From the IMG/VR virus record IMGVR_UViG_3300010340_000989, positions 1 to 64,000 of that record: a DNA stretch of 64,000 bases. One strand, given 5' to 3'. The position numbers were made by a program, and so were the translations under genes. This DNA comes from a virus (taxonomy: Duplodnaviria; Caudoviricetes). Positions 1 to 59,495 of this stretch are shown piece after piece. The notes beneath the pieces are model-generated. The model did not search any database and was not told where the DNA came from. It saw nothing but the letters and a program-made list of their open reading frames with translations. Every line of letters begins with the position of its first letter. Positions within the stretch are counted from its first letter, which is position 1.

Positions 1-275
1 TATTTAAAAATTTGATCTATTTTTTCATCTCTTAGCTTACTAATATCAATAAAGTGCTTATTAAAATCCTTTTCTTTTATTGGTGCCCAATAAGATTCTC
101 TATCACTTTCAATATAGTATTGAACACCTACATCACGTTCATAGTCTTCTGGAATTCTTATCTTATAATATTTTCCCTTTGACCATTTAATCCACTCTTC
201 TCCAAATTTTTTTCCATTTATTGAATAAGTATTTAAATTCTTTTCAAAGAATGTTCTTTTGCAATAAACCTTCAC
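1..275 (-). CDS. small hypothetical protein with C-terminal RDxKI tag (stop runs off window edge)
   Basis: Not in ORF track; hand translation from GTG275: MKVYCKRTFF...KGKYYKI...FIDISKLRDEKIDQIFK. Confidence 0.75.
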   Translation of the reverse strand, partial: MKVYCKRTFFEKNLNTYSINGKKFGEEWIKWSKGKYYKIRIPEDYERDVGVQYYIESDRESYWAPIKEKDFNKHFIDISKLRDEKIDQIFK

Positions 276-291
276 ACATAGTAATCATTTT

Positions 292-585
292 TTATTGACC
301 AATCACTTCGTCAATTCTCTTTTCTCTTATTCTTGGTAAATAAGTAATTGCTAATTTACACGCCATTCCGAATGTATTACCACTGTGACCCTCATCTAAA
401 CCAGGAACTAATTTTTTTTGTTCGTCCCATTCCATTTTGTAGAATTCCATAATTTTTTCTTTTATTCTTAAAGATTCCGCAATTAAAATTCCTTGCTCAC
501 AACAAAAATTATTGTAAGATAATCCCATTCCCTCATTTAAATCACCAACCAATGATTCAAAAAATTCTTTATCTTCTTGTGTCAT
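292..585 (-). CDS. hypothetical protein (GHSGNTFG motif) with C-terminal tag
   Basis: ORF track; ends REKRIDEVIGQ; ATGA overlap with coaE. Confidence 0.75.
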   Translation of the reverse strand: MTQEDKEFFESLVGDLNEGMGLSYNNFCCEQGILIAESLRIKEKIMEFYKMEWDEQKKLVPGLDEGHSGNTFGMACKLAITYLPRIREKRIDEVIGQ

Positions 586-1160
586 ATTAATTCATTTATT
601 TTTTTAACTTGTTCAAATACATTTTCGGTATAATCATTATTGATTACCCATTTAGAATTATCAATTTTAAATTGATCCGGAAGTTGAGTCTTCATTCTTC
701 TGTTATATTCATCAGAAGTTATTTTATCCCGATTCATTGCCATTTGTTTTCTTTTTTTTGGATCTGCATTGACAAAAATAACTTCATCAAATTGATCTTG
801 TAAATTATATTCATAAACAAGAGCACTCTCTATTAAAACATACCTTTTATTCTTAAATTGATCATAAAACTTATCCAACTCTTCTTTAAGATATGGTTTG
901 ATTATCTCTGATATATCTTTTAAATTCTTACCACTATCATCATAGAACAACTTTCTAACCATATATTCCTTATTCATAACATTACCGGTATATGAGTCTG
1001 GAAATCTCTTTTTAATCTTTTTAATAAGACTTTCATTAGTCATTTGAAGTTGTTTAACAACTTGATCCATAATCAAAACAGGAACACCTAAAGTAGCAAA
1101 TTTCATTGAGATAAAGCTTTTACCCGATCCCATTGATCCAGTTATAACTACACGTTTCAT
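582..1160 (-). CDS. coaE: dephospho-CoA kinase
   Basis: ITGSMGSGKS P-loop, following D, ESALVYE, RRMKTQ, VINND: CoaE pattern. Confidence 0.85.
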   Translation of the reverse strand: MKRVVITGSMGSGKSFISMKFATLGVPVLIMDQVVKQLQMTNESLIKKIKKRFPDSYTGNVMNKEYMVRKLFYDDSGKNLKDISEIIKPYLKEELDKFYDQFKNKRYVLIESALVYEYNLQDQFDEVIFVNADPKKRKQMAMNRDKITSDEYNRRMKTQLPDQFKIDNSKWVINNDYTENVFEQVKKINELI

Positions 1161-1192
1161 ACTAATTTATTCTTTATATTGTCTTATTTTAT

Positions 1193-1218
1193 TTATATAG
1201 AATTTTTATTACAAGTTT
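1193..1218 (-). promoter_or_regulatory. putative middle-type promoter AAACTT-N13-TATATAA
   Basis: Same bipartite motif upstream of several minus-strand operons. Confidence 0.45.
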
Positions 1219-1240
1219 TTGTTGGGAAAGTAATTAATAC

Positions 1241-1249
1241 TAATATATA
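1241..1249 (+). promoter_or_regulatory. putative late promoter TAATATATA
   Basis: Recurrent motif just upstream of structural, endonuclease and leader-bearing genes. Confidence 0.55.
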
Positions 1250-1276
1250 AATAAAAAGATTATAGACAGACATACT

Positions 1277-3320: not shown

Positions 3321-3539
3321 CTAATTTTTTTTCAATAGTTCACCAATTTTCCTATCTCTGTGAAGTTGATATAATCTATCAAAGAATTCTTGATCGAGTT
3401 CAGTGGTTGTGTATCTTTGACCATCTGTTCCTTCATAATAATAATGCTCAAGACTATATTTATATCCTTTAAAATTAATATCAATTATCTCACTTTTAAG
3501 TGGCAAATTATAATGCGCCATCATTTTAATATCTGTCAT
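3321..3539 (-). CDS. hypothetical protein with C-terminal tag
   Basis: Ends RDRKIGELLKKN. Confidence 0.7.
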   Translation of the reverse strand: MTDIKMMAHYNLPLKSEIIDINFKGYKYSLEHYYYEGTDGQRYTTTELDQEFFDRLYQLHRDRKIGELLKKN

Positions 3540-3826
3540 AAAAGTTTACTTAAATTATATTCTCTAAGTCTGTCTCTGACTTTAGGATCTTTAACAGCCT
3601 CTCTAATTCCATCTCTAATTTCTTTAGACATAGACTTTTTGATATGCTTATAGATTTGGAATTGATGTTGTGGATACTTTGGTTTGTAAGTAGAAATAAA
3701 CATTTCATCAGTTCCTTCAAAGAAGTCTACAAAATTAATTTTCCAACCATCTCGCATACGACCTAATTTCCTTGACATATCACAGGAAAATACCATATTA
3801 CCGTATCTAGCCACTACCATAATCAT
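3536..3826 (-). CDS. hypothetical protein with C-terminal tag
   Basis: Ends REYNLSKLL. Confidence 0.7.
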   Translation of the reverse strand: MIMVVARYGNMVFSCDMSRKLGRMRDGWKINFVDFFEGTDEMFISTYKPKYPQHQFQIYKHIKKSMSKEIRDGIREAVKDPKVRDRLREYNLSKLL

Positions 3827-3874: not shown

Positions 3875-4471
3875 ATGAGATATTTAAAACTATTTGAAGA
3901 ATTTGAAGGTGAACATATTTCCTCACATCTAAGAGGTCGTGGTATAGATCCTACTAAAACAAGACTGATAATTGACGAAGAAACAGAAGATACTTACTTC
4001 TTCTTGTATAATCTATCTGGTCAAATGGTTGGATATCAAAAGTACAATCCAAATTATCAAAAAACTGGTCAAAGTAATTTAGATAATCCAAGAATGGCTA
4101 AGTACTTTACGTGGGTATCCGACGAAGACAAAGGTAAGAAGATTGCAGTATGGGGATTAGAATCAACAGAATTTACAGATAAATATCTTTTTGTAACTGA
4201 GGGTATATTTGACGCAGCGAGAATACAAGAAGCTGGTCACCCAGCAATTGCAGTTCTTTGTAATGATCCAAGTGATTCTTTAAAATCTTGGATTTCAACA
4301 CTACCTCAAAAGAAAATTGTTATCTATGATAACGATAAAGCAGGTAGAAAATTAAAAAAAGTTGGTGATTTTTCTTATACGGTACCAAGTGGAAAAGACG
4401 CCAACGATTTATCACCAGAAGAAGCTAAAGTCTTCTTAGAAAATTGTTTAATTAATTCTGGATTAAGGTAA
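3875..4471 (+). CDS. Toprim-domain (primase-like) protein with capsid-targeting-like leader
   Basis: VTEGIFDA, YDNDKAG, KDAND Toprim motifs; N-term MRYLKLFEEFE; AAATATATA at 3859-3867. Confidence 0.75.
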   Translation: MRYLKLFEEFEGEHISSHLRGRGIDPTKTRLIIDEETEDTYFFLYNLSGQMVGYQKYNPNYQKTGQSNLDNPRMAKYFTWVSDEDKGKKIAVWGLESTEFTDKYLFVTEGIFDAARIQEAGHPAIAVLCNDPSDSLKSWISTLPQKKIVIYDNDKAGRKLKKVGDFSYTVPSGKDANDLSPEEAKVFLENCLINSGLR

Positions 4472-4712
4472 TTTTTAAATCTCTAAGATTTTCTTTACTG
4501 AGAATATTAAAGTTAATGACTTTAAATAAAAATTCTATTTGTTCATTTGATAAGTATTCAATATCTTTTATTACTCGGATATAATCTGATGTTATTTCTT
4601 TTAAAACTAATAATTCATTTCTTCTAACATCAACTGCAAATTCGTATAATTGTCTTTCAATTGCCCAACTTTTCAAAGATTGAACTGCATTTATTTTATC
4701 CTGACTAGTCAT
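4452..4712 (-). CDS. UVR/ClpC M-domain-like small protein with C-terminal tag
   Basis: AIERQLYEFAVDVRRNE; ends RDLKITLIQN. Confidence 0.6.
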   Translation of the reverse strand: MTSQDKINAVQSLKSWAIERQLYEFAVDVRRNELLVLKEITSDYIRVIKDIEYLSNEQIEFLFKVINFNILSKENLRDLKITLIQN

Positions 4713-5040
4713 TTTCTCCTAATATTTTAGATATTATCTCTTGTCTTATCACAGATATCATTATAACATCGTGTAATTGTTTTAAATTATTTTTTAACTC
4801 CTCATTAATTTTATCTGTTGAGTATTTATTAATAAGTCTTTCAATACGATCATAATATTGAAGTGAGTCAAGTGAATTAACTCTTATCCAATCAATTTCT
4901 GCTTTGTTAAAAGGATTTATAAATAAATCTTTTTCAATATCTCTAACTAATGCACCAAACTCATAGTATTGATTAGTAACCGCAATTCTTTTAATATTTT
5001 TAAGACAAATTTCAAATGATTTATGTTCTCTCGGTGTCAT
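4705..5040 (-). CDS. UVR/ClpC M-domain-like small protein with C-terminal tag
   Basis: AVTNQYYEFGALVRDIEK; ends RQEIISKIL. Confidence 0.65.
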   Translation of the reverse strand: MTPREHKSFEICLKNIKRIAVTNQYYEFGALVRDIEKDLFINPFNKAEIDWIRVNSLDSLQYYDRIERLINKYSTDKINEELKNNLKQLHDVIMISVIRQEIISKILGEND

Positions 5041-5311
5041 TTTCTAAAATTTTATTTATAATATCTTCTCTAATCTTTTGTCTAAAACTGTTTAATAAGT
5101 TCAATAAATCTGAAGATATTGTGGTAGTATTAATCACATCATTAATCCAATTGTAATATTTATTAATACTTAAAGTCTCCTTTTCACTATTTATTAGAGT
5201 TTTTTCAATATTTCTTAAGATAGCGGCGACTTCATAACTTTGACTTCGCACTACTAAAATTTTAACTTTTACTATAAATTCTTTAATTAATTCATATTCA
5301 TCTTGTGTCAT
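5021..5311 (-). CDS. UVR/ClpC M-domain-like small protein with C-terminal tag
   Basis: VVRSQSYEVAAILRNIEK; ends REDIINKIL. Confidence 0.65.
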   Translation of the reverse strand: MTQDEYELIKEFIVKVKILVVRSQSYEVAAILRNIEKTLINSEKETLSINKYYNWINDVINTTTISSDLLNLLNSFRQKIREDIINKILENDTERT

Positions 5312-5453
5312 TGATATTTTTTAATATTTTTTCGATTTTTGAAATCTTTGTATGTTTTATCGTAAAGTACATAGTAATAGTACTTGGATAAAGAGATGAA
5401 AAATCCATATTAACGATTCTACTTTGTTCTACGTTGAGTTTGATATTATCCAT
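5298..5453 (-). CDS. 51-aa protein carrying an isolated PolB motif A
   Basis: Likely start ATG5453 (track start 5516 lies deep in upstream gene); VNMDFSSLYPSTI. Confidence 0.6.
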   Translation of the reverse strand: MDNIKLNVEQSRIVNMDFSSLYPSTITMYFTIKHTKISKIEKILKNINDTR

Positions 5454-6174
5454 TAAATTCTTTATTAAATATATCAAAATTATTACCAACAGAATTATGA
5501 TCATTAATAATTGCAAAAACTATATTATCAAAATCAACAGAATATCCTTCACCAATTAATACTTCACTAAAATATTGTGCCATTGTTTTGGGATCATTTT
5601 TAAAAACTCCACATCCCCAAGCACCAAGTATTAGATTCTTAACTCCATTTTGAGCTGCTAATGAAACCATTAATCTTATTTTATTTTTAGTTACATTTCT
5701 ATAATCTTTTATATTTTGTACTGGATCATATTTAGCATTCTCATTTAAATTGATAGCAGATATTGTCACCACATCACAAGTAATTGGTTCCATATATTCA
5801 TAGTTATTATCTTTGAAGAAGATAGCATCTTTTGTATATAGTGATTCATTTTCTTCTAATGGATAAAAACTATTAGGAACAACATGAATTAGATTAGAAC
5901 ATCTAAATAAACATTCTTCTTGTGCTCTGGCTCCATTATAAACACCACCACCTGGTCTTTTATATGATGCCATATTTAATACACAGGTCTTACCTAATTT
6001 AGAATATTCAACAACTGCGGAAACACTATCAGTATTTATGATATTGACAATATCTTTAAACATTGTTAATCTTGGCGGATTTCTTTCATCAAAAGTATGT
6101 TTTGATGTTATTGAATCTCTTAGATTCTTACTATTTTCTAATGTATCTTGAAATACATTTACTAAATTTTTCAT
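5446..6174 (-). CDS. bacterial-type PARG macrodomain (TIGR02452/DUF2263-like)
   Basis: LNMAS..PGGG...GARAQEE.LFRCS, LILGAWGCGVF.N. Confidence 0.88.
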   Translation of the reverse strand: MKNLVNVFQDTLENSKNLRDSITSKHTFDERNPPRLTMFKDIVNIINTDSVSAVVEYSKLGKTCVLNMASYKRPGGGVYNGARAQEECLFRCSNLIHVVPNSFYPLEENESLYTKDAIFFKDNNYEYMEPITCDVVTISAINLNENAKYDPVQNIKDYRNVTKNKIRLMVSLAAQNGVKNLILGAWGCGVFKNDPKTMAQYFSEVLIGEGYSVDFDNIVFAIINDHNSVGNNFDIFNKEFNG

Positions 6175-6494
6175 ATTCCTAATTCATTTAATTTACGATT
6201 TCTATCAATTGATAATTTCTTTCTAGTTAAAGTAATATTATCTATGCCTATACATTTATCATTATCATCTATGCCTATACATTTATCATTATCATTTGAA
6301 CATAATGAACACTTACATTTTTTATTTGTTTTTCCGTCTATTTTTTCCGAAGTTTTAAAGATAATTATTCCAGATTGAGTAAAACGATCTATTGTAAATT
6401 CTAAATCTGGAAAATAACACATTTTAATACCTGGGCATTTTTTAATCATTTCTTTCCAATTAATAATAAATTTATCTCCTATCTCTGGTATCAT
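6171..6494 (-). CDS. Cys-containing hypothetical protein with C-terminal tag
   Basis: CKCSLC; ends RNRKLNELGI. Confidence 0.7.
   Translation of the reverse strand: MIPEIGDKFIINWKEMIKKCPGIKMCYFPDLEFTIDRFTQSGIIIFKTSEKIDGKTNKKCKCSLCSNDNDKCIGIDDNDKCIGIDNITLTRKKLSIDRNRKLNELGI
6241..6294. repeat. perfect 27-bp tandem duplication (in frame)
   Basis: tctatgcctatacatttatcattatca x2, encodes DNDKCIGID twice. Confidence 0.9.
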
Positions 6495-6736
6495 ATTCCC
6501 AATTTTTCTAAATTATAATCTCTGACTAATTGAATAAATTCATCTTGACTTATAGCTCTCATGCAATTATCCCAGATATTGATAGTCTCTTTTGTTCTAA
6601 AATTTATCCAAGTGCAATCTGTTCCAAAATTTCGAATATATCTATCGGTGTGAAGAAATTCAAATTCAAAAACATCATCACCATTATACCAATTTTGTAA
6701 AGAATATTCTTGTTTCATCTTATACAATTTTTTCAT
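6491..6736 (-). CDS. hypothetical protein with C-terminal tag
   Basis: Ends RDYNLEKLGI. Confidence 0.72.
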   Translation of the reverse strand: MKKLYKMKQEYSLQNWYNGDDVFEFEFLHTDRYIRNFGTDCTWINFRTKETINIWDNCMRAISQDEFIQLVRDYNLEKLGI

Positions 6737-6987
6737 ATTCCTAATTTATTTAGAATTTTTTCTCTATTCCATTGATTATAGAAATCAATAACATATTCTA
6801 ATCCAAAAATGTGATCAATTTTGCGTTTTTCAATTTCTAATTTTAGTTCTTCCCATATTAAGTCTCTAGTACCAAATTTTATACCAACATCTGACCAATT
6901 TCCAGGTTTATTCCAATCATACCAGTTTTTATGGGTTAGGTAATAATGTTCATTTAAATCTTTAGTTATTTCTAAAAAATATTTCAT
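6733..6987 (-). CDS. hypothetical protein with C-terminal tag
   Basis: Ends REKILNKLGI. Confidence 0.72.
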   Translation of the reverse strand: MKYFLEITKDLNEHYYLTHKNWYDWNKPGNWSDVGIKFGTRDLIWEELKLEIEKRKIDHIFGLEYVIDFYNQWNREKILNKLGI

Positions 6988-7172
6988 ATTCCTAAATCAT
7001 TTATTTTAATGTCTCTTATTGTAGATTTACCTGGTACTACTTCAAATTCTTTCTCACTAATACCACACCCATCATTATTACCTAATCTGCAATTTTCACA
7101 GTCCATATCTGGATCCTCATGAACACACAATACTCTCTCATATAAAGGATCAAACATTACATATACTTTCAT
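6984..7172 (-). CDS. small Cys-rich protein with C-terminal tag
   Basis: CENC; ends RDIKINDLGI. Confidence 0.7.
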   Translation of the reverse strand: MKVYVMFDPLYERVLCVHEDPDMDCENCRLGNNDGCGISEKEFEVVPGKSTIRDIKINDLGI

Positions 7173-7834
7173 ATGCCAAGTTTTTCTATTTTATCATCTC
7201 TAATAAAAGTTTTGATTAGATCAATTGCTCTTTGAGCATCTTTTCTATATCCTTTTACTTCAAAACTTTCCTTTTTAATCACGTATCTTTTTTTTTCTTC
7301 AATATAAATATAAGGAATTTCTTCAATATCATACGGAATATTAAATCCTAATAGATCTAACTCTCCACAATAAAAAATAATATCAGTATCAATATATAAT
7401 ATTTTATTTTTATTTATTTCTAAAAGATCATTATAATAAGCAGTTAAATATTGAGATAACATAGTGGTATAATCAACATCTCCAATTTTAGACATATATG
7501 AGAGAGTTCCATAGAATGAATTTATATATGTTTTATATTCTTTATAAACCTCCGAATCAGACTTTAATATTAATTTATTTTTATTAAAATAATCGAATTT
7601 TTTATTAAATTCAATCATTCCCATTCTCAATTTTTCACTTGCCATTTCATGATATCCAGAATCTATTAATCCACAGATTATATTTGGATATAATGATGTA
7701 AATGTAAGTTGTTTAACTTCTTTCAGCGGAATACCTTTTATAAAAGGATTTACCCAAATAAACCCAAACAACTGTACATTTTGGTAATAATCTGGTTTGC
7801 CTATGGCATTTTTATATTTATCTAAGAGCTTCAT
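7169..7834 (-). CDS. miniature family-B DNA polymerase palm-like protein (motif A Asp absent) with C-terminal tag
   Basis: TFTSLYPNII (A), KTYINSFYG (B), YIDTDIIF (C), KKRY; ends RDDKIEKLGI. Confidence 0.75.
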   Translation of the reverse strand: MKLLDKYKNAIGKPDYYQNVQLFGFIWVNPFIKGIPLKEVKQLTFTSLYPNIICGLIDSGYHEMASEKLRMGMIEFNKKFDYFNKNKLILKSDSEVYKEYKTYINSFYGTLSYMSKIGDVDYTTMLSQYLTAYYNDLLEINKNKILYIDTDIIFYCGELDLLGFNIPYDIEEIPYIYIEEKKRYVIKKESFEVKGYRKDAQRAIDLIKTFIRDDKIEKLGI

Positions 7835-8015
7835 CTATTTTTCTATTTCTAAAATCACTTAATAGTTCAAAATTATTTGAGGTAACATGCATTTTACCAA
7901 ACGTTGGGTGCCATATAACCAACCAATCGGGATTAAATGAATAAACTTCAAATATATCACCCTTCTTATAGGGTTGAGAATCTTCTATAGCTATTACTTT
8001 CAAATCAATTTTCAT
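7818..8015 (-). CDS. small beta-barrel-like protein with C-terminal tag
   Basis: YKKGDIFEV; ends RNRKIDEALR. Confidence 0.65.
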   Translation of the reverse strand: MKIDLKVIAIEDSQPYKKGDIFEVYSFNPDWLVIWHPTFGKMHVTSNNFELLSDFRNRKIDEALR

Positions 8016-8721
8016 CCAAAATTTGATTTATTTTAATATCTCTAAATTCTGATATTGATGGTATCCAGTTATGATTAGAGTATTTATTCTGATAGTCAGG
8101 ATATATTTTTTCTTTAAACATTCTATCAAAATTTCTGAATCTCATAGGAAACTCTTTACATATTTGAATTAATATTTCAAGCATTTCATTATAAGCAATC
8201 CAACATTTCTCACTAATTCCAGTAGAAATCTGAATATCTATTTTATTACTTATTGGATCAATAATTTCAATTATATCATATTCAATAGATGAATTTCCAA
8301 AAGGTCTTTTATCGGCTGTTGATATAATAATTGTATTATCTGGTGATTGATTATCATCAAACCAATTTTTATATTGACCTTGATCAAAATATAATTTATT
8401 AATTAAAGATATATGATGTTTTTTTATTTTATTTCTTTCTATAAATTCCGGACTTAAATCATCGAATAGTATATGACGTGTTAAAAATTGTAAAGCCAAT
8501 CCACATCGATTATAAAAATCACCTGGTGATAAATCCTTACGATACTTTTCAATAACTTCCATGTTATCACTCTCAATGGTTGCTAAAACTTTAGCACAAT
8601 AACAACCTTCTTTAAAAACCCATTTTATTTCTTTAATTGCACTTACAACATTTTCAGTTAAATGCCAATTTGAATATTGACTATATGAGTAATATAAATC
8701 TTCCGGATTAATTCTTGCCAT
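8005..8721 (-). CDS. hypothetical protein with C-terminal tag
   Basis: Ends RDIKINQILDEN. Confidence 0.75.
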   Translation of the reverse strand: MARINPEDLYYSYSQYSNWHLTENVVSAIKEIKWVFKEGCYCAKVLATIESDNMEVIEKYRKDLSPGDFYNRCGLALQFLTRHILFDDLSPEFIERNKIKKHHISLINKLYFDQGQYKNWFDDNQSPDNTIIISTADKRPFGNSSIEYDIIEIIDPISNKIDIQISTGISEKCWIAYNEMLEILIQICKEFPMRFRNFDRMFKEKIYPDYQNKYSNHNWIPSISEFRDIKINQILDEN

Positions 8722-12181: not shown

Positions 12182-12618
12182 ATACCTAATTCTTCTAATT
12201 TAACATGACGATTATGTGAATCATCTAAAATAATCTCAGCTGATTCTTTTGGAACCCATCTATCTTGTAAGAATCCTAAAATACCACCCCTCATAGAAGG
12301 ATCTCTAGTAAGAGAATCATATCCTTTAAAATCAATTGCCCTTACTTTAATACTATTTTCAGATATATCCACAATTTCAATTTCATAATCAACATGAAAG
12401 TCTTTTTTATCTCCAGTATTTGATGTATGTGTTAATCCATAATTATTTAAAAGTGCTTTAGCGCCAATATAAAAATCAACACTTTTATTTTCTGAAGTAA
12501 TTTTCTCTTTTAGTTCTTTGATTTGTGATTTAAGATTTTTTCTATCTAAAAATAAAACAAAAATAACAGCTAAAAGCACAAGAGGTGTGATTGATAAAAG
12601 TAGTAAAATATTTTGCAT
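12178..12618 (-). CDS. N-terminally membrane-anchored protein with C-terminal tag
   Basis: Likely start ATG12618 (MQNILLLL, hydrophobic run); ends RHVKLEELGI. Confidence 0.7.
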   Translation of the reverse strand: MQNILLLLSITPLVLLAVIFVLFLDRKNLKSQIKELKEKITSENKSVDFYIGAKALLNNYGLTHTSNTGDKKDFHVDYEIEIVDISENSIKVRAIDFKGYDSLTRDPSMRGGILGFLQDRWVPKESAEIILDDSHNRHVKLEELGI

Positions 12619-12619
12619 A

Positions 12620-15950: not shown

Positions 15951-16003
15951 TAAATATATATTAATTATATCTATACCTTCTGTTACATATTATCATATAT
16001 CCA

Positions 16004-17300: not shown

Positions 17301-17318
17301 TTCTTACAAATATAATTA

Positions 17319-17873
17319 TTAATTCTTACCTTCCAAAATATTTCTTTCTGTCTCTAAATCTCGATTAATTGCTCTTTCAGAAGAAAACTTATCACCATAT
17401 CTTGCCTTCAATTTATCAATATTAACATCAAAAGATTTCTCAATATCGATATCATATGTATTCATATAATCTGATACATCTAACATTACTAAATTTGTGA
17501 TTGTTTTAAACAAATTCTCATCAATTGGTTTATTATAATAAAGTTTTTTCTTCATCATATCTAATAACTTACAAGTATTTTTAACAATTTTTAAAACCAA
17601 TTTCATTGGATTATCATTCTTTGTTTTAACAATTAATTGTGGATAATCTAGGTTCATTTCTCTACCTATAATTGCCAAGTACCATGTAATATCACCAGCT
17701 TCTTCTAACATATTTGTAAAATCTTGCTCATCACCAATATGATTATCAAGCAGTTCTTCAACTTCAGTTAATACTCCTATAACAGCATGTAGTATTCTTT
17801 GTTCTCTTTCATCACAATGGAATTGTGTGGATAGTGTTTTTTCAGATAATTCTAAATATTCTGACCAATTCAT
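17319..17873 (-). CDS. MazG-like nucleotide pyrophosphohydrolase
   Basis: EVEELLD, EEAGDITWYLA, NIDKLKARY. Confidence 0.8.
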   Translation of the reverse strand: MNWSEYLELSEKTLSTQFHCDEREQRILHAVIGVLTEVEELLDNHIGDEQDFTNMLEEAGDITWYLAIIGREMNLDYPQLIVKTKNDNPMKLVLKIVKNTCKLLDMMKKKLYYNKPIDENLFKTITNLVMLDVSDYMNTYDIDIEKSFDVNIDKLKARYGDKFSSERAINRDLETERNILEGKN

Positions 17874-21133: not shown

Positions 21134-22025
21134 AGAAAGTTTTTAGATCTAAAATTTTATTTAGAGTGTTATTTCTTTTATATTTCTTTTTATATTCTAT
21201 AAATTCATTATACTTATCATGTTTTCTTTCTAATCTAATATTTTCAGAATCCTTATACATAAACTCACACAAATTGTAAATAGATTCCGAGTCATGAATG
21301 CATAGTTGTGAAGATTTTCCCAACTTATCAACAACTATTCTAATTTTATATCTCACATTTATTTCATCTAAAATATTTGATAAAAAATTCCAATTTTGTC
21401 CGCTAGAAGATGAGAAATAAACTGCAGTTTGTCTATAGTTTTTACCAGAATTTGAAATTGTTATACACCCATCACCATCAAATAATCCCCTAAGAAAATG
21501 ACTTTTAAGATTATTAAATCTATTATAAATTGAGGTTCCATTTTCTTTTTCTCTGTAATTATTAGATATAAGATAACTACCTAAATCATCAGAAGAAATC
21601 CAGTGTGTTGACATTGTATTTTTTCCAATAGACTTTTTATTCTCACTATTAAAATGTCTCCAATTAAGTTCTTTAAATAAATTGGTAAAAATAAAAGAGT
21701 CATATTCTACACAAGAATGTTTAACTACTTTTGTTTTATTTTTATTATTAGAGAAGGCAACATGTCCGTCAGTCCAAATTACCCCGAGTATATAAGCTAT
21801 TTTTGGATTTTTAACATCTATATAATCAGAAACTGTTATAATATTTTTATTTTTAAATCTACTATTTTCAATTATATCTTTATTAACTTTTAATTTATTT
21901 CTAAAAGCGAATGATATTACCGTTGATTTTTTAATAGAAAGCTCATCAGAACAATATTTGGCACCCTTTTGTGTATAATTTTCTAAAATAAAGTCAATTT
22001 CTTTCTCAGTTAATTTCTTTCTCAT
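21132..22025 (-). CDS. LAGLIDADG homing endonuclease
   Basis: AYILGVIWTDG, FLRGLFDGDG; TAATATATA at 22030-22038 (-); ends RNNTLNKIL. Confidence 0.85.
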   Translation of the reverse strand: MRKKLTEKEIDFILENYTQKGAKYCSDELSIKKSTVISFAFRNKLKVNKDIIENSRFKNKNIITVSDYIDVKNPKIAYILGVIWTDGHVAFSNNKNKTKVVKHSCVEYDSFIFTNLFKELNWRHFNSENKKSIGKNTMSTHWISSDDLGSYLISNNYREKENGTSIYNRFNNLKSHFLRGLFDGDGCITISNSGKNYRQTAVYFSSSSGQNWNFLSNILDEINVRYKIRIVVDKLGKSSQLCIHDSESIYNLCEFMYKDSENIRLERKHDKYNEFIEYKKKYKRNNTLNKILDLKTF

Positions 22026-24612: not shown

Positions 24613-25472
24613 AATCCAAGTTCTTCTAGTATTTGGTTTCTAACTGAGCATTGTGTTATTGACATAATTCTTTCAGTCTCACGTTTAACAACATGAGAAT
24701 CTTGTTTACTAAATATTCTTAAATATGTTTGGAAAACCCAAAAAGCATCTAAATAGAAATCATTAGTGTTATTAATAACAAGTTTATCTGATTGTGTTCT
24801 GAGTGTTAAATATTGAGAGTCCGTTAATTTAAGTCTACCTTCTGATGCGTAGTGAATAATAGAATTTTTAAGTGAATCAAATTTTAGATGATCTGATTTA
24901 ACTTCAATATCTTTAATAATACATTTTTGAAGATTAGATAGTGAAATTTTATGACCAACTAATGATTTAATCGATTCAATTTGTTCGTTGAATGTTTCAC
25001 CATTAAGTCCAGTTGAAGCGATTTCAGCAGCTTGTGTAACACCTCGAAGATGTTTTTTAGTTAAGCCAAGATTTTTAATAGATGATACTAAATAATAATT
25101 TTTAGCATCACAATAAAGACCAGCATTAAAGCTTAATCTACGAGATTTATCAGAGGAATTTAGTATAAAAAATGATTTATGAAAGCTAACTCCTTCAATT
25201 TCAATTGAATCACTCAAAAGAGTTAATTCTTGTATTCCTTTAGTGATTCTAAAATGATATTTAGTAATATTAAAATTACGTTCAATTGTATCAATTTTAT
25301 CTTTTAAGTAAGATATGATATCAAAAATTTCATATCTATTAGAGACATCACTAATTGATGTAACTGTGTCTCGATATTTAGTAACAACTTGGCTACCAAC
25401 TTGTTCAATCGATATAAGATTAATCTTATCAATTAACTCTTGTTTATTGTAGTTTAAAAAGCTTCTTCTCAT
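24609..25472 (-). CDS. DUF932-like protein with C-terminal tag
   Basis: S.RYE, FILNSSD.S..L.F.AGL, KKH; ends RNQILEELGL. Confidence 0.55.
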   Translation of the reverse strand: MRRSFLNYNKQELIDKINLISIEQVGSQVVTKYRDTVTSISDVSNRYEIFDIISYLKDKIDTIERNFNITKYHFRITKGIQELTLLSDSIEIEGVSFHKSFFILNSSDKSRRLSFNAGLYCDAKNYYLVSSIKNLGLTKKHLRGVTQAAEIASTGLNGETFNEQIESIKSLVGHKISLSNLQKCIIKDIEVKSDHLKFDSLKNSIIHYASEGRLKLTDSQYLTLRTQSDKLVINNTNDFYLDAFWVFQTYLRIFSKQDSHVVKRETERIMSITQCSVRNQILEELGL

Positions 25473-25486: not shown

Positions 25487-25518
25487 CAAATGTAACTATA
25501 AAATTTTATTTTGACAAA
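25487..25518 (-). promoter_or_regulatory. Bacteroidota primary-sigma promoter TTTG-N20-TACATTTG
   Basis: -33 TTTG (25515-25518) and -7 TAnnTTTG (25487-25494) with canonical spacing. Confidence 0.65.
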
Positions 25519-46128: not shown

Positions 46129-46170
46129 ATATTTATCATATGAAAAAAAGCCTACATAGTTTATCAACTT

Positions 46171-46202
46171 TTGTATGTAATACAAATATATACATGTATA
46201 TA
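46171..46202. promoter_or_regulatory. twin palindromes, putative operator
   Basis: TTGTAT-gta-ATACAA and perfect TATATACATGTATATA upstream of RHH gene. Confidence 0.55.
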
Positions 46203-46395: not shown

Positions 46396-46405
46396 TATAT
46401 AGTTA

Positions 46406-53777: not shown

Positions 53778-54041
53778 TTAGATACCTAGAATTGATAAAT
53801 TTAACTCACGAAGATCCATAATATCATCTTTGTGTAGTTCATATCCTCTATAATCACCATCATCTAAATCATCGAATATATAAAATACCCAGTGATCATT
53901 AAGAAATGTTCCAGTCCATATAAATGCTAGATTGTATATTTTATTTTTGGTAAGCAACTTCTTACCAAAGAATATTGATGATTCTTTAGCATAAATATCT
54001 TCACCAATATATTTAATCTTATTTATCTTCAAGTATATCAT
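53778..54041 (-). CDS. small beta-barrel-like protein with C-terminal tag
   Basis: LTKNKIY; ends RELNLSILGI. Confidence 0.68.
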   Translation of the reverse strand: MIYLKINKIKYIGEDIYAKESSIFFGKKLLTKNKIYNLAFIWTGTFLNDHWVFYIFDDLDDGDYRGYELHKDDIMDLRELNLSILGI

Positions 54042-54543
54042 CTATTTTACCGTCTCGAGTTGCTGCCTTGCTAACAGTTTTTTTCAACTGCGTGATATAA
54101 TTATCATATTTATCATTTAATTCTTTTTCTGAGAAATATTTATTTCTTTTTTCTAAAAAGTCGAATATATCTTTTTGAATACTTTTTGATTCATCAACCC
54201 AACTAATAAAATAAAAAGAATCTACTTCTCTTGTGTAATAATTAGTATCATGAGAAATTATCATTTTTGTTAAATATTTATCTGACTCATATCCCCAAAG
54301 TGATGTTTCCGCCTTTTTAAAAATATCGACATGGAACTTAAATTGCATGTCTTTTTTTCTAATATCAAAACTATATTTAACAATTCTACCTTCAAATGTG
54401 GATTCACTATACTGTGGGTGAATATACTTAATAGATGATATATTATCCGGTCTGATCCACATATCATCTTCAAAAGAAATAACGGATTGATAAACTGTTG
54501 TTAATAAGTCTTTTAGTTTTTCATTTTTCATTTTATTCTTCAT
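54019..54543 (-). CDS. hypothetical protein with C-terminal tag
   Basis: Ends RDGKIDDILEDK. Confidence 0.72.
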   Translation of the reverse strand: MKNKMKNEKLKDLLTTVYQSVISFEDDMWIRPDNISSIKYIHPQYSESTFEGRIVKYSFDIRKKDMQFKFHVDIFKKAETSLWGYESDKYLTKMIISHDTNYYTREVDSFYFISWVDESKSIQKDIFDFLEKRNKYFSEKELNDKYDNYITQLKKTVSKAATRDGKIDDILEDK

Positions 54544-54781
54544 TTAATATGTTTTTTAGTTTGGCTTCTCGAAAAATTTGAGTAAATTTTTTATTATCAG
54601 ATAGTCCAATTATCTCATGTCTTTTATAAGAATAAAGTCTATTTTGGTTCATTTCATAAAAAACAACATCTCCATCATAGAATTCAACATAAATAAATCT
54701 ATCATCTAGTAATTTAGAAAATTTTATCTTACTAATACTAGTGCCAGGATATTGTTCGTGTATTATATCCTTAATGTTCAT
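54533..54781 (-). CDS. hypothetical protein with C-terminal tag
   Basis: Likely start ATG54781; ends REAKLKNILNEE. Confidence 0.68.
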   Translation of the reverse strand: MNIKDIIHEQYPGTSISKIKFSKLLDDRFIYVEFYDGDVVFYEMNQNRLYSYKRHEIIGLSDNKKFTQIFREAKLKNILNEE

Positions 54782-55022
54782 GATTACATTTTTTATGGTG
54801 TCTATAATCTCTAATACCAATTACTAAAGATGTGATTCCAATTATAGCCCAGATAAAAGCCAAAATCGGATTATGCATTAATTCATCAATCCAAGATTGA
54901 TGTTCATGAGATTCCATTGAATATGTTATTAAAAACATAGATTGGACAAATTGAATAATATGTGTTATTCCGTGTAGTAAATTTAAAACTCCAACCGAAA
55001 TAAGAAATAGTGATTTATTCAT
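54771..55022 (-). CDS. small two-TM, His-rich membrane protein
   Basis: Two hydrophobic segments. Confidence 0.65.
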   Translation of the reverse strand: MNKSLFLISVGVLNLLHGITHIIQFVQSMFLITYSMESHEHQSWIDELMHNPILAFIWAIIGITSLVIGIRDYRHHKKCNHEH

Positions 55023-55206
55023 TATTTAATATGTTATTAAGTGATATTTCTCTATATTCATCTATATCATAGAAATTATTAAAATCTGTTGTAATGATCT
55101 TATTTCTATCCGAAACTATTTTATATCTACAAGGCTTTACTTCAAGAACTTCATATGATTTACCCTTTGTTAGGTTATCTGTTTGTTTTTTCGATATTAC
55201 TATCAT
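55015..55206 (-). CDS. small beta-barrel-like protein with C-terminal tag
   Basis: NLTKGKSYEV; ends REISLNNILNNE. Confidence 0.7.
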   Translation of the reverse strand: MIVISKKQTDNLTKGKSYEVLEVKPCRYKIVSDRNKIITTDFNNFYDIDEYREISLNNILNNE

Positions 55207-55450
55207 TTAAAATTTTATTAAGTTTATAGTCACGAATTTCTCTTTCAAATTTTATTCTCGAATATGTATATGTTGCTAATGTCCTAGACTTATGATTCAA
55301 AACTAATTTTATTGTAAATGATTCATTATAATTTTGATGAAAATACATAGCCTCAATAATTTCTTTATCTTTTAACTTGGTCTTTGATAGTGTATTTTTG
55401 ATAAACCCTTCATCAAATCCCATATTTTTTAGTTTATCATCTATCCTCAT
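55175..55450 (-). CDS. hypothetical protein with C-terminal tag
   Basis: RDYKLNKIL. Confidence 0.7.
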   Translation of the reverse strand: MRIDDKLKNMGFDEGFIKNTLSKTKLKDKEIIEAMYFHQNYNESFTIKLVLNHKSRTLATYTYSRIKFEREIRDYKLNKILNDSNIEKTNR

Positions 55451-55709
55451 TTAAAATTTTATTAATTTTATAATCTCTTATAACAGGATTAATTTTATCT
55501 AAAATAAGTTTAACATGACTGCCATTTCCACTAGTATATCCAGAATAATACTCTGAAGCATTAATATCCCAATCTTTAATTAAATTAAAAATCACCTCAA
55601 AAAGTTCTGATTCAATTTCGTCTCTTGATGGACTTGGCATACCTGTAATACCTGTATTAGGTTTGGATGGTATGGGTGGTGTCGGAAATTTATTAGCTTT
55701 TATATTCAT
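55437..55709 (-). CDS. hypothetical protein with C-terminal tag
   Basis: RDYKINKIL. Confidence 0.7.
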   Translation of the reverse strand: MNIKANKFPTPPIPSKPNTGITGMPSPSRDEIESELFEVIFNLIKDWDINASEYYSGYTSGNGSHVKLILDKINPVIRDYKINKILNEDR

Positions 55710-55932
55710 TTGAGAGTATTATTTTAAATTTATTATCTCTTATCATTTCTTTTGTTAAAGGTTTTAACCTTTTTTGATCAGAACACCAAAAACATCTATT
55801 ACCTTCATGTTGATAATGAAATGTAAATGTATATGAACAATCTTCACAATAATATTCTTCACATTTATCACAAACATCTTCAAAGATATTAAGTGAATAA
55901 CAAATATGACAATATTTGACTTCTTCTGACAT
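55693..55932 (-). CDS. Cys-rich zinc-finger protein with C-terminal tag
   Basis: Four CxxC pairs; RDNKFKIIL; ATG55932. Confidence 0.7.
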   Translation of the reverse strand: MSEEVKYCHICYSLNIFEDVCDKCEEYYCEDCSYTFTFHYQHEGNRCFWCSDQKRLKPLTKEMIRDNKFKIILSNEYKS

Positions 55933-56087
55933 CAATCAACTTTTGAATCTGATAAAAAAACATCTAAAATTTTAAGTATAATGAGTTTTATTTCAGCTAA
56001 TTGACCTTCCTGATATTTTGTTTTTTCTTTTATAGATTCAAAAAAAGCTTTTCGTTCTAAAAGGTATTTATATATTTCCATTTCCAT
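55932..56087 (-). CDS. 51-aa hypothetical protein
   Basis: Not in track; MEMEIYKYLLERK...SDSKVD*, TGATG overlap with next gene. Confidence 0.55.
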   Translation of the reverse strand: MEMEIYKYLLERKAFFESIKEKTKYQEGQLAEIKLIILKILDVFLSDSKVD

Positions 56088-56471: not shown

Positions 56472-56517
56472 ATTTAATTTTTTTCAAATATAGTTAAAAT
56501 TTTAATATATAACAAAT

Positions 56518-56769
56518 ATGAATCTAATGAAATTTGAAAATTTTAAAAGCAGAGGCGAAATAAGAAAAGAAGCTGATCAACTTCTTGGTAATCTACATGC
56601 AGCCTTACTTGGTAATATTGCTTATGATAATAGAGAAAATATTAAAAAATCAGTAGAAAATATTAAAAATTCTAATATAAATTGGGATAAAGATGTTGTA
56701 AAATCTGTTAGAGAAAAGTATAATGAATTAATGAAAGCATTAGAATGGCATATGAATAATTGGAATTAA
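56518..56769 (+). CDS. small protein with capsid-targeting-like leader
   Basis: MNLMKFENF; TAATATATA at 56503-56511. Confidence 0.7.
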   Translation: MNLMKFENFKSRGEIRKEADQLLGNLHAALLGNIAYDNRENIKKSVENIKNSNINWDKDVVKSVREKYNELMKALEWHMNNWN

Positions 56770-56990
56770 ATTAAAATTGACAACTTTTTATCTCTATATT
56801 CAGTCAAACTTAAAAATCTATTTGAACAATAATAGAAAGATTCTCCAACATCATTAGTTATTAAATACTCTTTTAAATCTTTTATAGAATCAATATTTTT
56901 CGAAACAAAATATTTCTCACCGATTGTTAAATTAACTATATCACTTGATGCACCATCACAAACACCATTATTAATACAAACTACCCACAT
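56766..56990 (-). CDS. small beta-barrel-like protein with C-terminal tag
   Basis: VVCINN..NLTIGEKY; ends RDKKLSILI. Confidence 0.72.
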   Translation of the reverse strand: MWVVCINNGVCDGASSDIVNLTIGEKYFVSKNIDSIKDLKEYLITNDVGESFYYCSNRFLSLTEYRDKKLSILI

Positions 56991-57319: not shown

Positions 57320-57680
57320 TATATAATTCTTTTATTTTATTGAATTTCTTATAATTTTCAAAAACATCTGATAAATCTGGATGAATTATAGAATCGACAT
57401 TTGATTTTGTAAAAAACGGATTTGTAGAGCATATAATTTTTTCCGAACTTCTAATAAATTGATATTGTTTTAGATACTTTTTCATAATTGTCGTGCAAAG
57501 TAGTTCATAATGTGAATAAAGTTTGTTCTTTTTAGTAAAAGGGAATAGTTTATAAACTTTTATAAGTTCTATAATTCTGGATTCATCATCAATATTTTCA
57601 AAATCAAAATTACTAAGATCTATAAAAGGTATATTATCACTTTTTAGTAAATTAAAAAACACTTCTAAAAAATTATTCAT
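57297..57680 (-). CDS. hypothetical protein
   Basis: ORF in operon; weak tag-like KFNKIKELY. Confidence 0.65.
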   Translation of the reverse strand: MNNFLEVFFNLLKSDNIPFIDLSNFDFENIDDESRIIELIKVYKLFPFTKKNKLYSHYELLCTTIMKKYLKQYQFIRSSEKIICSTNPFFTKSNVDSIIHPDLSDVFENYKKFNKIKELYNDYKSSK

Positions 57681-57982
57681 TCTATCAAAAAATCTATTTT
57701 ATATTCTCTTTCTAATGTGAGAATTTTTAACCAAGTTCCTGTTAAATCACTATTATTATAAATATATCCATCTATTTTACCATAATTGGATTTTTTAAAA
57801 TCTGATACTAATACATCTCTAATTTCATTCTCATTCGGACATTTAAAATTATTTTCTTCACAAGGTCTATCTAGTATATATGCGTTACTTAGATATAAGT
57901 AATCGGAAATAACTTTGAATACAGAATATTCTAAATTTTGATTATCAATATAAGTTAATTTAATTTTTTCAACTTTTATCAT
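57677..57982 (-). CDS. hypothetical protein with C-terminal tag
   Basis: Ends REYKIDFLIE. Confidence 0.68.
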   Translation of the reverse strand: MIKVEKIKLTYIDNQNLEYSVFKVISDYLYLSNAYILDRPCEENNFKCPNENEIRDVLVSDFKKSNYGKIDGYIYNNSDLTGTWLKILTLEREYKIDFLIE

Positions 57983-58247
57983 TTAATAAATCATTAATTT
58001 TAATATCTCTGTTTTTAATAGTTGTTGGTGGTAGTTTTTTAACATCTTCAATTGTTTGAATAACTTGTTCAGGATTTAGATATCCCATAACATCATTTGT
58101 TATTGGAGTTTCATAACATATCTCATAATCTTCTTCTTCTCCAATTAAAATAGCGATTTCATATAAACCATTTAGACCACCATAAGAGAATTCATTTGAT
58201 ATTATACTAATACCATATCCATTTGAGTAAAAATATTTTTGATCCAT
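57969..58247 (-). CDS. conserved phage protein (NGYG.S...SYGG..GLYE.A) with C-terminal tag
   Basis: TPITNDVMGYL; ends RDIKINDLLN. Confidence 0.72.
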   Translation of the reverse strand: MDQKYFYSNGYGISIISNEFSYGGLNGLYEIAILIGEEEDYEICYETPITNDVMGYLNPEQVIQTIEDVKKLPPTTIKNRDIKINDLLNDKS

Positions 58248-58319
58248 TTATGATTATATTTAAGATAAACTAATAGTTGTTATTCGATATATTTTATTAT
58301 TTTAATATATAACAAATAT

Positions 58320-59018
58320 ATGAAATATTTAAAAAGATTCAAACAAATTTGTAAGAAAAATCAATTTATTAAAGAATCTAATCAGAAATTCGATGGTGAT
58401 GATAGATGGGTGGAATATGATCCTGCAGATAGTGGAATATCAGCTAAACGAATATGGAGATACCCTATATCTAGTAGATTCAATTGTTTAGTAAGAATGA
58501 CGGGTCAGAATGGATTTTATGATTTTGTTTTTTATTTCGAAGATATAGAATTAGATCGAAGATATTTTATGGATTATCTATATAAGGAACCTATTTCATA
58601 TAGAGGTTATAGAAAATTAAATTCTAATAATGCGATAGAAATATGTAAAGATCAATTGGATTTTTATAAACAAATAGAGCTTTTCCCAACAGAAAATGAG
58701 ATAAAAGAGTCACTTTATGTTTTTAAAGATGAGGATATTTACTTAAATGAAGATGGTGAAATAAAATATGGATATAGATACGAAAAATCATCTGATCCTG
58801 ATAACTCTGATTTAGTAGAGTGGCATTATAGAAAATTCAATGCAGGATTTATATGTGCTTTCATTATGGAAAAATATGAAAACAAATTTCCAGATAATAT
58901 TTCATCGCTAATAAATGAATTTAAATTTAATATTGAGAATATTACTAACAATGAATATGAGATAGAATATTATATTGATACTAGAGGATTGGTAATAATA
59001 TTAGACCCATCATATTGA
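58320..59018 (+). CDS. protein with capsid-targeting-like leader; paralog of 61833
   Basis: MKYLKRF..QFIKES; W.E.DP...GISA; TAATATATA at 58303-58311. Confidence 0.75.
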   Translation: MKYLKRFKQICKKNQFIKESNQKFDGDDRWVEYDPADSGISAKRIWRYPISSRFNCLVRMTGQNGFYDFVFYFEDIELDRRYFMDYLYKEPISYRGYRKLNSNNAIEICKDQLDFYKQIELFPTENEIKESLYVFKDEDIYLNEDGEIKYGYRYEKSSDPDNSDLVEWHYRKFNAGFICAFIMEKYENKFPDNISSLINEFKFNIENITNNEYEIEYYIDTRGLVIILDPSY

Positions 59019-59028
59019 TGGGTCTAAT
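59000..59028. terminator. perfect 13-bp hairpin between convergent genes
   Basis: attagacccatca-tat-tgatgggtctaat with A/T-rich flanks. Confidence 0.7.
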
Positions 59029-59033
59029 TTAAT

Positions 59034-59213
59034 TTAATTTTCTAATACTTTATCGATATTAGCTTCTCTAATTTTTGCTCGAATCCAAGAAGTATCTTTT
59101 TCTAAGTCACTATCTGTAATAGATAATTGATCCATAATTGTTTTTAACAGAAGATTTCTGTTTTCATAGTAATAGCTTTGTTTTTCTGACATTTCGCCTT
59201 CTTGTGAAATCAT
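59034..59213 (-). CDS. 59-aa protein with C-terminal tag
   Basis: Not in track; MISQEGEM...IRAKIREANIDKVLEN*. Confidence 0.68.
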   Translation of the reverse strand: MISQEGEMSEKQSYYYENRNLLLKTIMDQLSITDSDLEKDTSWIRAKIREANIDKVLEN

Positions 59214-59249
59214 AATATTTATTTATTTTATTAGTTATAATTTTTATTT

Positions 59250-59495
59250 TTAAATAAGTTGATCTAATAATTGATCAATTATTAAATCTCTTTTATTTTT
59301 AATCCACTCTTTATATAACTCAATTTTAACTATTTCAAACCAATAACTGCCAGGAAATCCATGATTTCCTATTTTAATATCGATATACACATAACCAATT
59401 TTAAATGATTCACAAAATGTATCAAGACCATGATGATCGTTATAAGAACGACATTCTTGTAAAAATTTTGTCAATAACTTTTCATTAACTTCCAT
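59250..59495 (-). CDS. hypothetical protein with C-terminal tag
   Basis: Ends RDLIIDQLLDQLI. Confidence 0.68.
   Translation of the reverse strand: MEVNEKLLTKFLQECRSYNDHHGLDTFCESFKIGYVYIDIKIGNHGFPGSYWFEIVKIELYKEWIKNKRDLIIDQLLDQLI

Follow-up and report, generated by a model that had tools for sequence, protein, structure and literature searches.

Why do dozens of otherwise unrelated small proteins of one phage end in the same short helix? The question is raised by a stretch of 64,000 nucleotides (hereafter the window), which makes up the initial 64 kb of an IMG/VR virus record of 164,996 bp, IMGVR_UViG_3300010340_000989 (27% G+C, CheckV completeness 52%; here G000 or the contig). An earlier note on this DNA had described a short C-terminal motif, which we call the tag, at the ends of about 35 of its minus-strand open reading frames (ORFs). 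The clade of this phage consists of huge phages (312-642 kb) whose promoters are of the Bacteroidota type, and we have compared the phage with uncultured huge relatives: two IMG/VR contigs, G002 (312.7 kb) and one of 483 kb, the close GenBank relatives LR756502 (642 kb, complete) and LR745206 (635 kb), and the more distant LR756504 (636 kb), LR756500 and LR756501 (735 kb), the last being the 735-kb genome described before (PMC7162821). Our best-supported reading, held with moderate confidence, is that the tag is a docking label for one common partner.

Using a relaxed pattern, we identified 33 tagged minus-strand ORFs, which have R-[DEN]-x-K-[IL]-x-x-[IL]-[LG] placed 0-10 residues before the stop codon, among the 96 non-overlapping ORFs of the window, and all 12 examples quoted in the earlier note were found at the ORFs named there. 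In 30 of the tagged ORFs the motif scored at least 6 bits against a hidden Markov model (HMM) of the tag; the model was built from the 43 instances of the contig, and these 30 are thus partly training data. Genes on the plus strand also have the tag, between 98 and 105 kb of the contig. Over the whole 165-kb contig, the first and stricter pattern matched 23 of the 2,750 C-terminal start positions (the last 11) vs 1 of the 48,609 internal ones, an odds ratio of 410 (Fisher p 1.2e-28). When the 20 terminal residues were shuffled 1,000 times, 0.06 matches were obtained on average and 2 at most. This bears out the claim that the motif is more frequent at C-termini than internally or in shuffled ends. 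Reading the ORF tails also confirmed that the tag is missing from prs and other enzymes and from the fiber genes; it is restricted to small accessory proteins, with a median length of about 100 aa and a range of 59-287 aa.

The conserved stretch is longer than the motif first described. Numbered from the Arg, it runs from about -5 to +8 and reads [ST]-[KIL]-[QSD]-E-[ILYV]-R-[DEN]-x-K-[IL]-[NDS]-x-[IL]-[LGIF], where the Arg is invariant, -5 is Ser or Thr, -2 is Glu and -1 is hydrophobic. This Arg lies in the middle of the hydrophobic face of an amphipathic helix, acidic residues are kept at -2 and +1, and the net charge is near zero. The usual placement is 0-4 residues before the stop codon. 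Two subclasses can be distinguished, one ending exactly in L-G-I before the stop and the other with I-L followed by 1-4 polar residues. The polar tail after the motif is variable (0-12 residues) and only the L-G-I subclass has a fixed end. In the literature that we searched, with a preprint check, there is no published description of the tag, nor of a comparable proteome-scale short linear motif in a bacterial virus, so that the tag does appear to be undescribed, as had been supposed.

Selection on the peptide maintains the tag. The Arg of the motif is encoded by AGA in 36 cases, by CGA in 4 and by CGT in 3 (genome-wide 72, 8 and 12%), synonymous codons at the motif positions follow the genome background, and Ile and Leu are swapped through first-base changes. 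In eight ortholog pairs from G000 and G002, 20 of 39 identical tag residues were encoded by different codons. The codon variation that had been taken to point to peptide selection is in this way quantified. Matches to a nucleotide position weight matrix (PWM) fall almost exclusively in frame at ORF ends, and no high-scoring copies were found out of frame or in intergenic DNA. The start of the downstream gene is rarely inside the motif (4 of 38 cases; 10 of 127 in LR756502), the distance from motif to next start ranges from 2 to more than 60 nt, and the tag is present also where the next gene is not close. In about 40% of the cases the ATG of the next gene lies 2-3 nt past the motif, often 28-29 nt from the first base of the Arg codon. 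We take these frequent starts just behind the motif to reflect a compaction of the genome that goes no further than the constrained peptide allows.

The bodies that carry the tag are unrelated, as had been stated before and as is upheld by blastp and by one profile-profile test. An all-vs-all blastp search of the tagged bodies gave a single pair below E 1e-3 (adjacent genes, E 5e-5), and the comparison of two tagged families with hhalign gave a probability of 0.1%. The bodies include Cys-rich, DUF932-like and LAGLIDADG proteins. Searches of Pfam and PHROGs with about 27 tagged proteins gave no family matches, which leaves the labels 'mini-PolB' and 'UVR mimic' of the earlier note unconfirmed for the proteins tested, and no close relative of ORF 8005-8721 was found in IMG/VR. 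The same list had included a tagged LAGLIDADG protein, whose domain was recognized (Pfam LAGLIDADG_3 at 21132-22025) and whose tag is only weak, and a membrane-anchored protein, of a kind that is under-represented, since proteins with transmembrane (TM)-like segments are rarer among tagged ORFs (13 of 179 vs 143 of 1,100).

Besides, the tag is a separable add-on to these bodies. It is under purifying selection, being kept in 9 of 10 orthologs with identities of 27-59%. One tagged protein of LR756502 has a 41%-identical homolog in LR756501 that ends just before the start of the tag, an instance of the untagged homologs that the earlier note had suggested looking for in other phages. In the family of the 109-aa protein (16971-17300) the R-E-S core is invariant in 13 homologs, one of which has a 30-residue insertion ahead of the unchanged tag, and the AlphaFold2 model of the protein places the tag in a helix of its own (residues 96-108) after a loop (89-95). 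A body known with and without the tag and an insertion of this size tolerated ahead of it indicate that the tag is portable across unrelated bodies. The largest carrier, of 287 aa (24609-25472), has 862 homologs, and an R-N-x-x-L-E-x-L-G-I end was found in nearly all of the 120 listed. Its model matched a DUF932-containing viral cluster of the ESM Atlas over residues 2-261, which supports by fold the DUF932-like label that had been given to it, and the tag forms the end of a further helix (259-284). VIA-align Z scores for this protein were middling (maximum 6.4) and Foldseek found no match in the PDB.

A separate observation concerns a 204-aa ORF on the plus strand of the contig (104048-104662), which we take from its sequence to encode a dCMP-deaminase-like protein. 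The last residues of its 65-residue N-terminal extension form a full tag with Met directly behind it, which looks like the fusion of a small tagged gene to the enzyme by stop loss.

We have examined the distribution of the tag in the relatives. The numbers of HMM matches near the C-terminus vs internal were 39 vs 1 in G000, 24 vs 4 in G002 and 112 vs 18 in LR756502 (1,008 ORFs). In IMG/VR there were at least 117 matches to the pattern, and among the matches listed 49 were in frame at ORF ends, on low-GC contigs with further tags; at least 40 contigs of this database have the tag. The same nucleotide pattern also matches an internal segment of an unrelated family, R-D-N-K-I-N-x-I-L-V-E-Q-N-F-G-G-G-M-F, which is not the tag; this segment is highly conserved and was found at IMG/VR loci L133, L134, L136 and L137 and about 20 other loci, on phage contigs of 34-38% G+C.

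For the comparison of lineages we used a neutral skeleton of the tag. Position 1 is D/E/N in 161 of the 191 tags of G000, G002 and LR756502, vs 6 of 57 in LR756504, where it is K in 25 of 57 (p 6e-25), resulting in a charge-switched R-K-x-K-I form. In this last genome position 4 is almost always Ile and Leu prevails at position 7; hardly any tags are of the L-G-I subclass (2 of 57 have Gly at +8), and the stop codon often comes directly after the motif. LR756501 has a single such tag in 1,061 ORFs. It carries another motif, D-P-Y-G-E-E-x-W-[DE], in 99 copies, 38 of them close to a C-terminus, 18 close to an N-terminus and 43 in other places, with varied synonymous codons (loci L025, which is LR756501.1 465693-506745 in reverse complement, and L063-L099, the whole record); this motif was not found in G000 or G002. 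A search for tag-swapped orthologs between LR756502 and LR756501 found homologs for 3 of the 112 tagged proteins, and none of the 3 had either motif. Our analysis indicates that the tag evolves in concert within each genome. A single binding constraint shared by dozens of unrelated proteins would make them shift together in each genome, as is seen here, and the rapid change of the tag favors a fast-evolving, probably phage-encoded reader over a conserved host hub. The suggestion of the earlier note that the peptide binds one hub is thus supported in part: the genome-wide lineage versions speak for it, and binding to the hub is what we infer.

The promoters give an indication of timing. The pattern TTTG-N18-21-TAnnTTTG is present in 24 copies vs 7.6 expected, 14 of them at 5-150 nt upstream of gene starts. 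In three genomes, tagged genes were enriched behind these Bacteroidota-type promoters compared with the late-like TAATATATA (odds ratios 2.3-5.5, p 0.003-0.04), which precedes fiber genes and homing endonucleases. Early expression of the tagged genes can only be suggested, because this classification of promoters is noisy. The same promoter pattern, together with a type IX secretion sorting domain in a protein of a relative, leads us to infer Bacteroidota as the host phylum. The protein in question is encoded at 89851-90822 of G002 (L010:13851-14822, minus strand) and combines a G8 domain with a weak C-terminal sorting domain of type IX secretion (23.2 bits, under the Pfam cut-off of 27), which is consistent with a Bacteroidota host.

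The tag is a short linear motif, an amphipathic helix of about 13 residues built around the invariant Arg of its hydrophobic face. Within one clade of huge Bacteroidota phages, each complete genome encodes more than 100 accessory proteins that have it, which are unrelated, fast-evolving and for the most part soluble. As a docking label, the tag would serve as a handle that brings the tagged proteins to a single shared partner, probably a fast-evolving one and hence likelier phage-encoded than a conserved host hub. The label would act in early or mid infection, because many tagged genes are downstream of host-type promoters. If one partner reads it, a single interaction would organize from a tenth to a third of the genes of phages that are among the largest known. 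The tag would give a handle on hundreds of unannotated orphan proteins and its reader would reveal where the early accessory proteins act, while the lineage versions are a natural specificity-swap experiment and the tag itself a possible portable recruitment module. A broader and more doubtful proposal, which we put forward tentatively, is proteome-scale addressing in huge Bacteroidota phages, in which dedicated and co-evolving phage readers would gather about 100 early effectors by means of labels proper to each lineage. These labels would possibly be R-[DEN]-x-K-[IL]-x-x-[IL]-L here, R-K-x-K-I-x-x-L-L in LR756504 and D-P-Y-G-E-E-x-W in LR756501. Such addressing would be comparable to the secretion and sorting signals of bacterial effectors, and would act inside the infected cell.

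Several points weigh against a docking label. The evidence for docking consists of portability and concerted evolution. The concerted change could also be explained by recognition between tags, and it could come in part from the copying of 3' ends between neighboring genes; tags of the L-G-I subclass form clusters at 6171-7834 and at the ends of LR756502. Since some copies of the tag are internal and there are even N-terminal ones, it does not strictly need a free C-terminus. The tag of the 287-aa family, where it is modeled as the last part of a long terminal helix, could belong to the fold of that protein. As to timing, TAATATATA occurs at chance frequency genome-wide (38 copies vs 35 expected) and the early/late assignment is noisy.

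Among the alternatives, the tag might be a degron or timer by which early proteins, once unneeded, would be delivered to a host protease (Clp, Lon or FtsH) or a phage adaptor, which we consider unlikely. It would fit the position near the C-terminus of small early accessory proteins, with enzymes and structural proteins left without tag, and ClpP is indeed encoded by some relatives (three copies each in LR756502 and LR756504, and also in LR756500). However, ClpP was not found in G000, G002 or G003, and for this reason was discarded as a universal reader. The 0-12 variable residues after the motif are unlike the situation in ssrA-type degrons, which need the extreme C-terminal residues and the carboxylate. 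Besides, a conserved host protease would not predict lineage versions, and neither the invariant Arg nor a helix of 13 residues is obviously needed for degradation.

Self-association, in which the tags would bind one another and gather their cargos in mixed assemblies or condensates, seems to us quite unlikely. An amphipathic helix with adjoining basic and acidic residues could do so, the shift of acidic residues from position 1 to 5-6 in LR756504 could preserve self-complementarity, and genome-wide concerted change is predicted equally. On the other hand, 13 residues are short for a stable coiled coil, and no oligomers were seen in a test of SHOCT, which among described short C-terminal modules comes nearest to the tag (PMC3581485). 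A predicted tag-to-tag complex of the 287-aa and 109-aa families scored 0.00 in a run made without controls, which speaks neither for nor against binding between tags.

We have searched for the reader by phylogenetic profiling. Homologs in LR756502 and LR756504 but not in LR756501 were found for 21 of the 426 ORFs of G002, which reduced the candidates from 150 to 21 genes, with no single one standing out. After Pfam analysis, the non-enzymatic candidates were GrpE, a 219-aa J-like protein, a UVR-motif protein of 130 aa (G002 230434-230826) and eight others without Pfam match. The most conserved lineage-restricted unknown is the 169-aa product of window positions 63224-63733 (minus strand; 83% identity between G002 and LR756502, not in LR756501), which was rejected as reader: by its ESM Atlas neighbors it resembles an MmcB-like PD-(D/E)XK nuclease.

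A special case of docking would be that the tag is read by the phage Hsp70 system (DnaK, DnaJ and GrpE) or by a specialized J-like protein, which would hold, fold or hand over the orphan proteins. This appears improbable and would be only a lead, because DnaK is present also in a genome without tags and its substrate-binding domain looks ordinary. Full-length DnaK was found in all five huge phages examined, including the tag-less LR756501, and the substrate-binding domains look canonical. In G000, beyond the window, the genes for DnaK (contig 109818-111683, 621 aa) and GrpE (113832-114329, 165 aa) and a DnaJ-like gene with HPD motif (114921-115955, 344 aa) are within 6 kb. GrpE and the 219-aa J-like protein are both among the 21 genes of tag-bearing genomes that are missing from LR756501. 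The latter, encoded in G002 at 54212-54871 (L008:16212-16871, minus strand) and found also in LR756502 and LR756504, has a J-like segment with HPD motif, but its match to Pfam DnaJ is under the cut-off (18 vs 27.8 bits). The mixture of basic and Ile/Leu residues in the tag would suit this reading. However, DnaK binds extended peptides, and the tag has conserved acidic residues, lacks a run of 4-5 hydrophobic residues and is modeled as a helix. Apart from this, a tag-like 180-aa gene was seen between those for GrpE and DnaJ in G000.

A membrane-targeting amphipathic helix like the C-terminal ones of MinD or FtsA is very improbable. The helix is amphipathic, C-terminal and with basic residues, and the scarcity of TM-like proteins among the carriers would be expected if the tag substituted for an anchor; but the acidic residues kept at -2 and +1, the net charge of about zero, the Arg in the middle of the hydrophobic face and a charge switch between lineages are unexpected for lipid binding. 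In the same way, we give very little credit to a single, much diverged paralogous family in which the helix would be the last recognizable part, with an intramolecular structural role. The tandem arrays of tagged genes, the locally clustered subclasses and the one neighboring pair still detectably related would agree with it, but not the range of lengths, the diversity of Cys-rich, DUF932-like and LAGLIDADG bodies without profile similarity, the body with and without tag or the insertion tolerated ahead of it. Finally, that the tag is the by-product, in a fixed frame, of a nucleotide signal for the downstream gene (an initiation region, promoter or recombination junction) is scarcely credible and already largely refuted, in spite of the ATGA gene overlaps and the many starts just beyond the motif, by the background-rate synonymous codons, the differing codons of half of the identical residues in orthologs, the lack of strong out-of-frame or intergenic copies, the variable distance to the next start and the tags with no gene following closely.

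We have compared the tag with known short sorting and docking peptides. Where this could be tested, it does not have the features that define SHOCT, the UVR motif, the PCNA-interacting protein (PIP) box, the capsid targeting sequence (CTS) and ssrA-type degrons. The CTS of T4 is like the tag a short terminal peptide that takes unrelated phage proteins to one destination. The CTS is N-terminal, belongs to late proteins that are packaged and is removed by the prohead protease, which cuts after Glu, while the tag is C-terminal and its genes are enriched behind host-type promoters. The encapsulation peptides of microcompartments and the cargo-loading peptides of encapsulins are short, terminal, portable, placed after a variable linker and read by one shell or scaffold, and those of microcompartments are amphipathic helices like the tag. 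Their sequence pattern is different and the scale of the tag is larger (11% of the ORFs of the complete genome and a third of those of the window). We know of no shell or compartment gene in these phages.

The C-terminal tails of T4 gp43, gp33 and gp55 dock on gp45, and PCNA clients do likewise. Here too C-terminal peptides of unrelated proteins meet on one hub, and the hydrophobic spacing of the tag (4, 7 and 8, behind a polar residue at position 1) is the same as in the PIP box. The consensus of such tails is Q-x-x-[ILM]-x-x-[FY]-[FY] or of the type Q-L-[SD]-L-F. The tag, however, has no aromatic pair, its Arg is invariant, position 1 is D/E/N or K and not Q as in the PIP box, and its carriers are orphan accessory proteins without replication domains. 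Pfam gave no T4-type clamp, beta clamp (PF02916, PF00712), PolB or DnaE in G000 or G002, phage clamps being very divergent. The UVR consensus, A-A-x-[IL]-R-D-x-[IL]-x-x-L, forms a helical hairpin, and in the tag the hydrophobic residue that follows R-D stands one position further on (R-D-x-K-[IL]). Neither the UVR motif (PF02151) nor SHOCT (PF09851) was detected by hmmscan in 28 tails (last 36 residues) at E up to 10, and SHOCT was not found in the full-length proteins at E 0.01. The second helix of SHOCT has a similar T-x-x-E-aromatic-x-x-x-K-x-x-L-L flavor. SHOCT comprises about 30 residues in two amphipathic helices with strongly conserved Gly and Glu, and its function is unknown (PMC3581485). 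Like the tag, it is a short helical module, mostly C-terminal, on many unrelated bacterial proteins, but the tag is one helix of 13 residues with an invariant Arg, no conserved upstream Gly and a Glu at -2 that is merely enriched. The chaperone addiction (ChAD) segment of toxin-antitoxin-chaperone (TAC) antitoxins is likewise short and C-terminal, and through it a dedicated SecB-like chaperone is recruited (PMC9098466). The resemblance lies in this short C-terminal form, and these phages encode DnaK, DnaJ and GrpE; ChAD however belongs to one antitoxin family, unlike the tag with its roughly one hundred unrelated carriers.

Table 1. Tag helices and promoter-like sites in the window. Coordinates of tag helices span motif positions -4 to +8; bits are scores of the tag HMM.
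Feature	Position	Strand	Details
Tag helix	6..44	-	ORF 3-275 (runs past window start), 12.1 bits
Tag helix	301..339	-	ORF 292-585, 7.2 bits
Tag helix	3333..3371	-	ORF 3321-3539, 11.7 bits
Tag helix	3539..3577	-	ORF 3536-3826, 9.5 bits
Weak tag	4458..4496	-	ORF 4452-4712, 6.0 bits
Tag helix	4720..4758	-	ORF 4705-5040, 8.0 bits
Tag helix	5045..5083	-	ORF 5021-5311, 10.5 bits
Tag helix, L-G-I end	6177..6215	-	ORF 6171-6494, 10.0 bits
Tag helix, L-G-I end	6497..6535	-	ORF 6491-6736, 11.8 bits
Tag helix, L-G-I end	6739..6777	-	ORF 6733-6987, 11.6 bits; G002 homolog of N-terminal half untagged
Tag helix, L-G-I end	6990..7028	-	ORF 6984-7172, 14.9 bits
Tag helix, L-G-I end	7175..7213	-	ORF 7169-7834, 10.3 bits; G002 ortholog (27% identity) tagged too
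Tag helix	7824..7862	-	ORF 7818-8015, 10.3 bits
Tag helix	8017..8055	-	ORF 8005-8721, 13.5 bits
Tag helix	11120..11158	-	ORF 11114-11455, 11.4 bits
Tag helix	11924..11962	-	ORF 11918-12181, 14.4 bits
Weak tag (His at position 1, L-G-I end)	12184..12222	-	ORF 12178-12663, relaxed pattern only
Tag helix	16977..17015	-	ORF 16971-17300 (109 aa), 8.1 bits
Bacteroidota-type promoter-like site (TTTG-N-TAnnTTTG)	17307..17337	-	7 nt upstream of ORF 16971-17300
Weak tag, LAGLIDADG endonuclease	21150..21188	-	ORF 21132-22025; relaxed pattern, nucleotide PWM 16.0, Pfam LAGLIDADG_3
Tag-like end R-N-x-x-L-E-x-L-G-[IL]	24615..24653	-	287-aa DUF932-like protein, ORF 24609-25472
Bacteroidota-type promoter-like site	25487..25518	-	15 nt upstream of ORF 24609-25472
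Tag helix	45898..45936	-	ORF 45892-46185, 14.5 bits
Tag helix, L-G-I end	53784..53822	-	ORF 53778-54041, 6.1 bits
Tag helix	54031..54069	-	ORF 54019-54543, 8.4 bits
Tag helix	54545..54583	-	ORF 54533-54820, 12.0 bits
Tag helix	55027..55065	-	ORF 55015-55206, 11.0 bits
Tag helix, 10-residue tail	55208..55246	-	ORF 55175-55450, 16.0 bits
Tag helix	55452..55490	-	ORF 55437-55709, 17.1 bits
Tag helix	55714..55752	-	ORF 55693-55935, 11.3 bits
Tag helix	56769..56807	-	ORF 56766-56990, 12.4 bits
Tag helix	57683..57721	-	ORF 57677-57982, 9.1 bits
Tag helix	57984..58022	-	ORF 57969-58247, 10.8 bits
Bacteroidota-type promoter-like site	58313..58343	-	66 nt upstream of ORF 57969-58247
Tag helix	59043..59081	-	ORF 59034-59213, 9.6 bits
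Tag helix	59265..59303	-	ORF 59250-59495, 7.1 bits

The remaining observations concern the surroundings of the tagged genes in the window. The sequence TAATATATA, a candidate late promoter, is found on the plus strand at 25553-25561, 29017-29025, 37683-37691, 41636-41644, 46393-46401, 56503-56511 and 58303-58311 and on the minus strand at 15955-15963 and 22030-22038, that is 5-28 nt upstream of giant fiber-like genes, of both LAGLIDADG genes and of further plus-strand genes. Three consecutive plus-strand ORFs of about 1,300 aa (1292, 1304 and 1294 aa), which come after ORFs of 1138 and 1534 aa, are located at 33782-45554, where the G+C content (30-40%) is above that of the rest of the window. 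Untagged genes are also found inside the tagged array (minus strand, 5446-6174, 9076-10134 and 10121-10813), and code for a microbial-type PARG/macro domain protein, a weakly MazG-like protein and a Bax1-inhibitor-like membrane protein.

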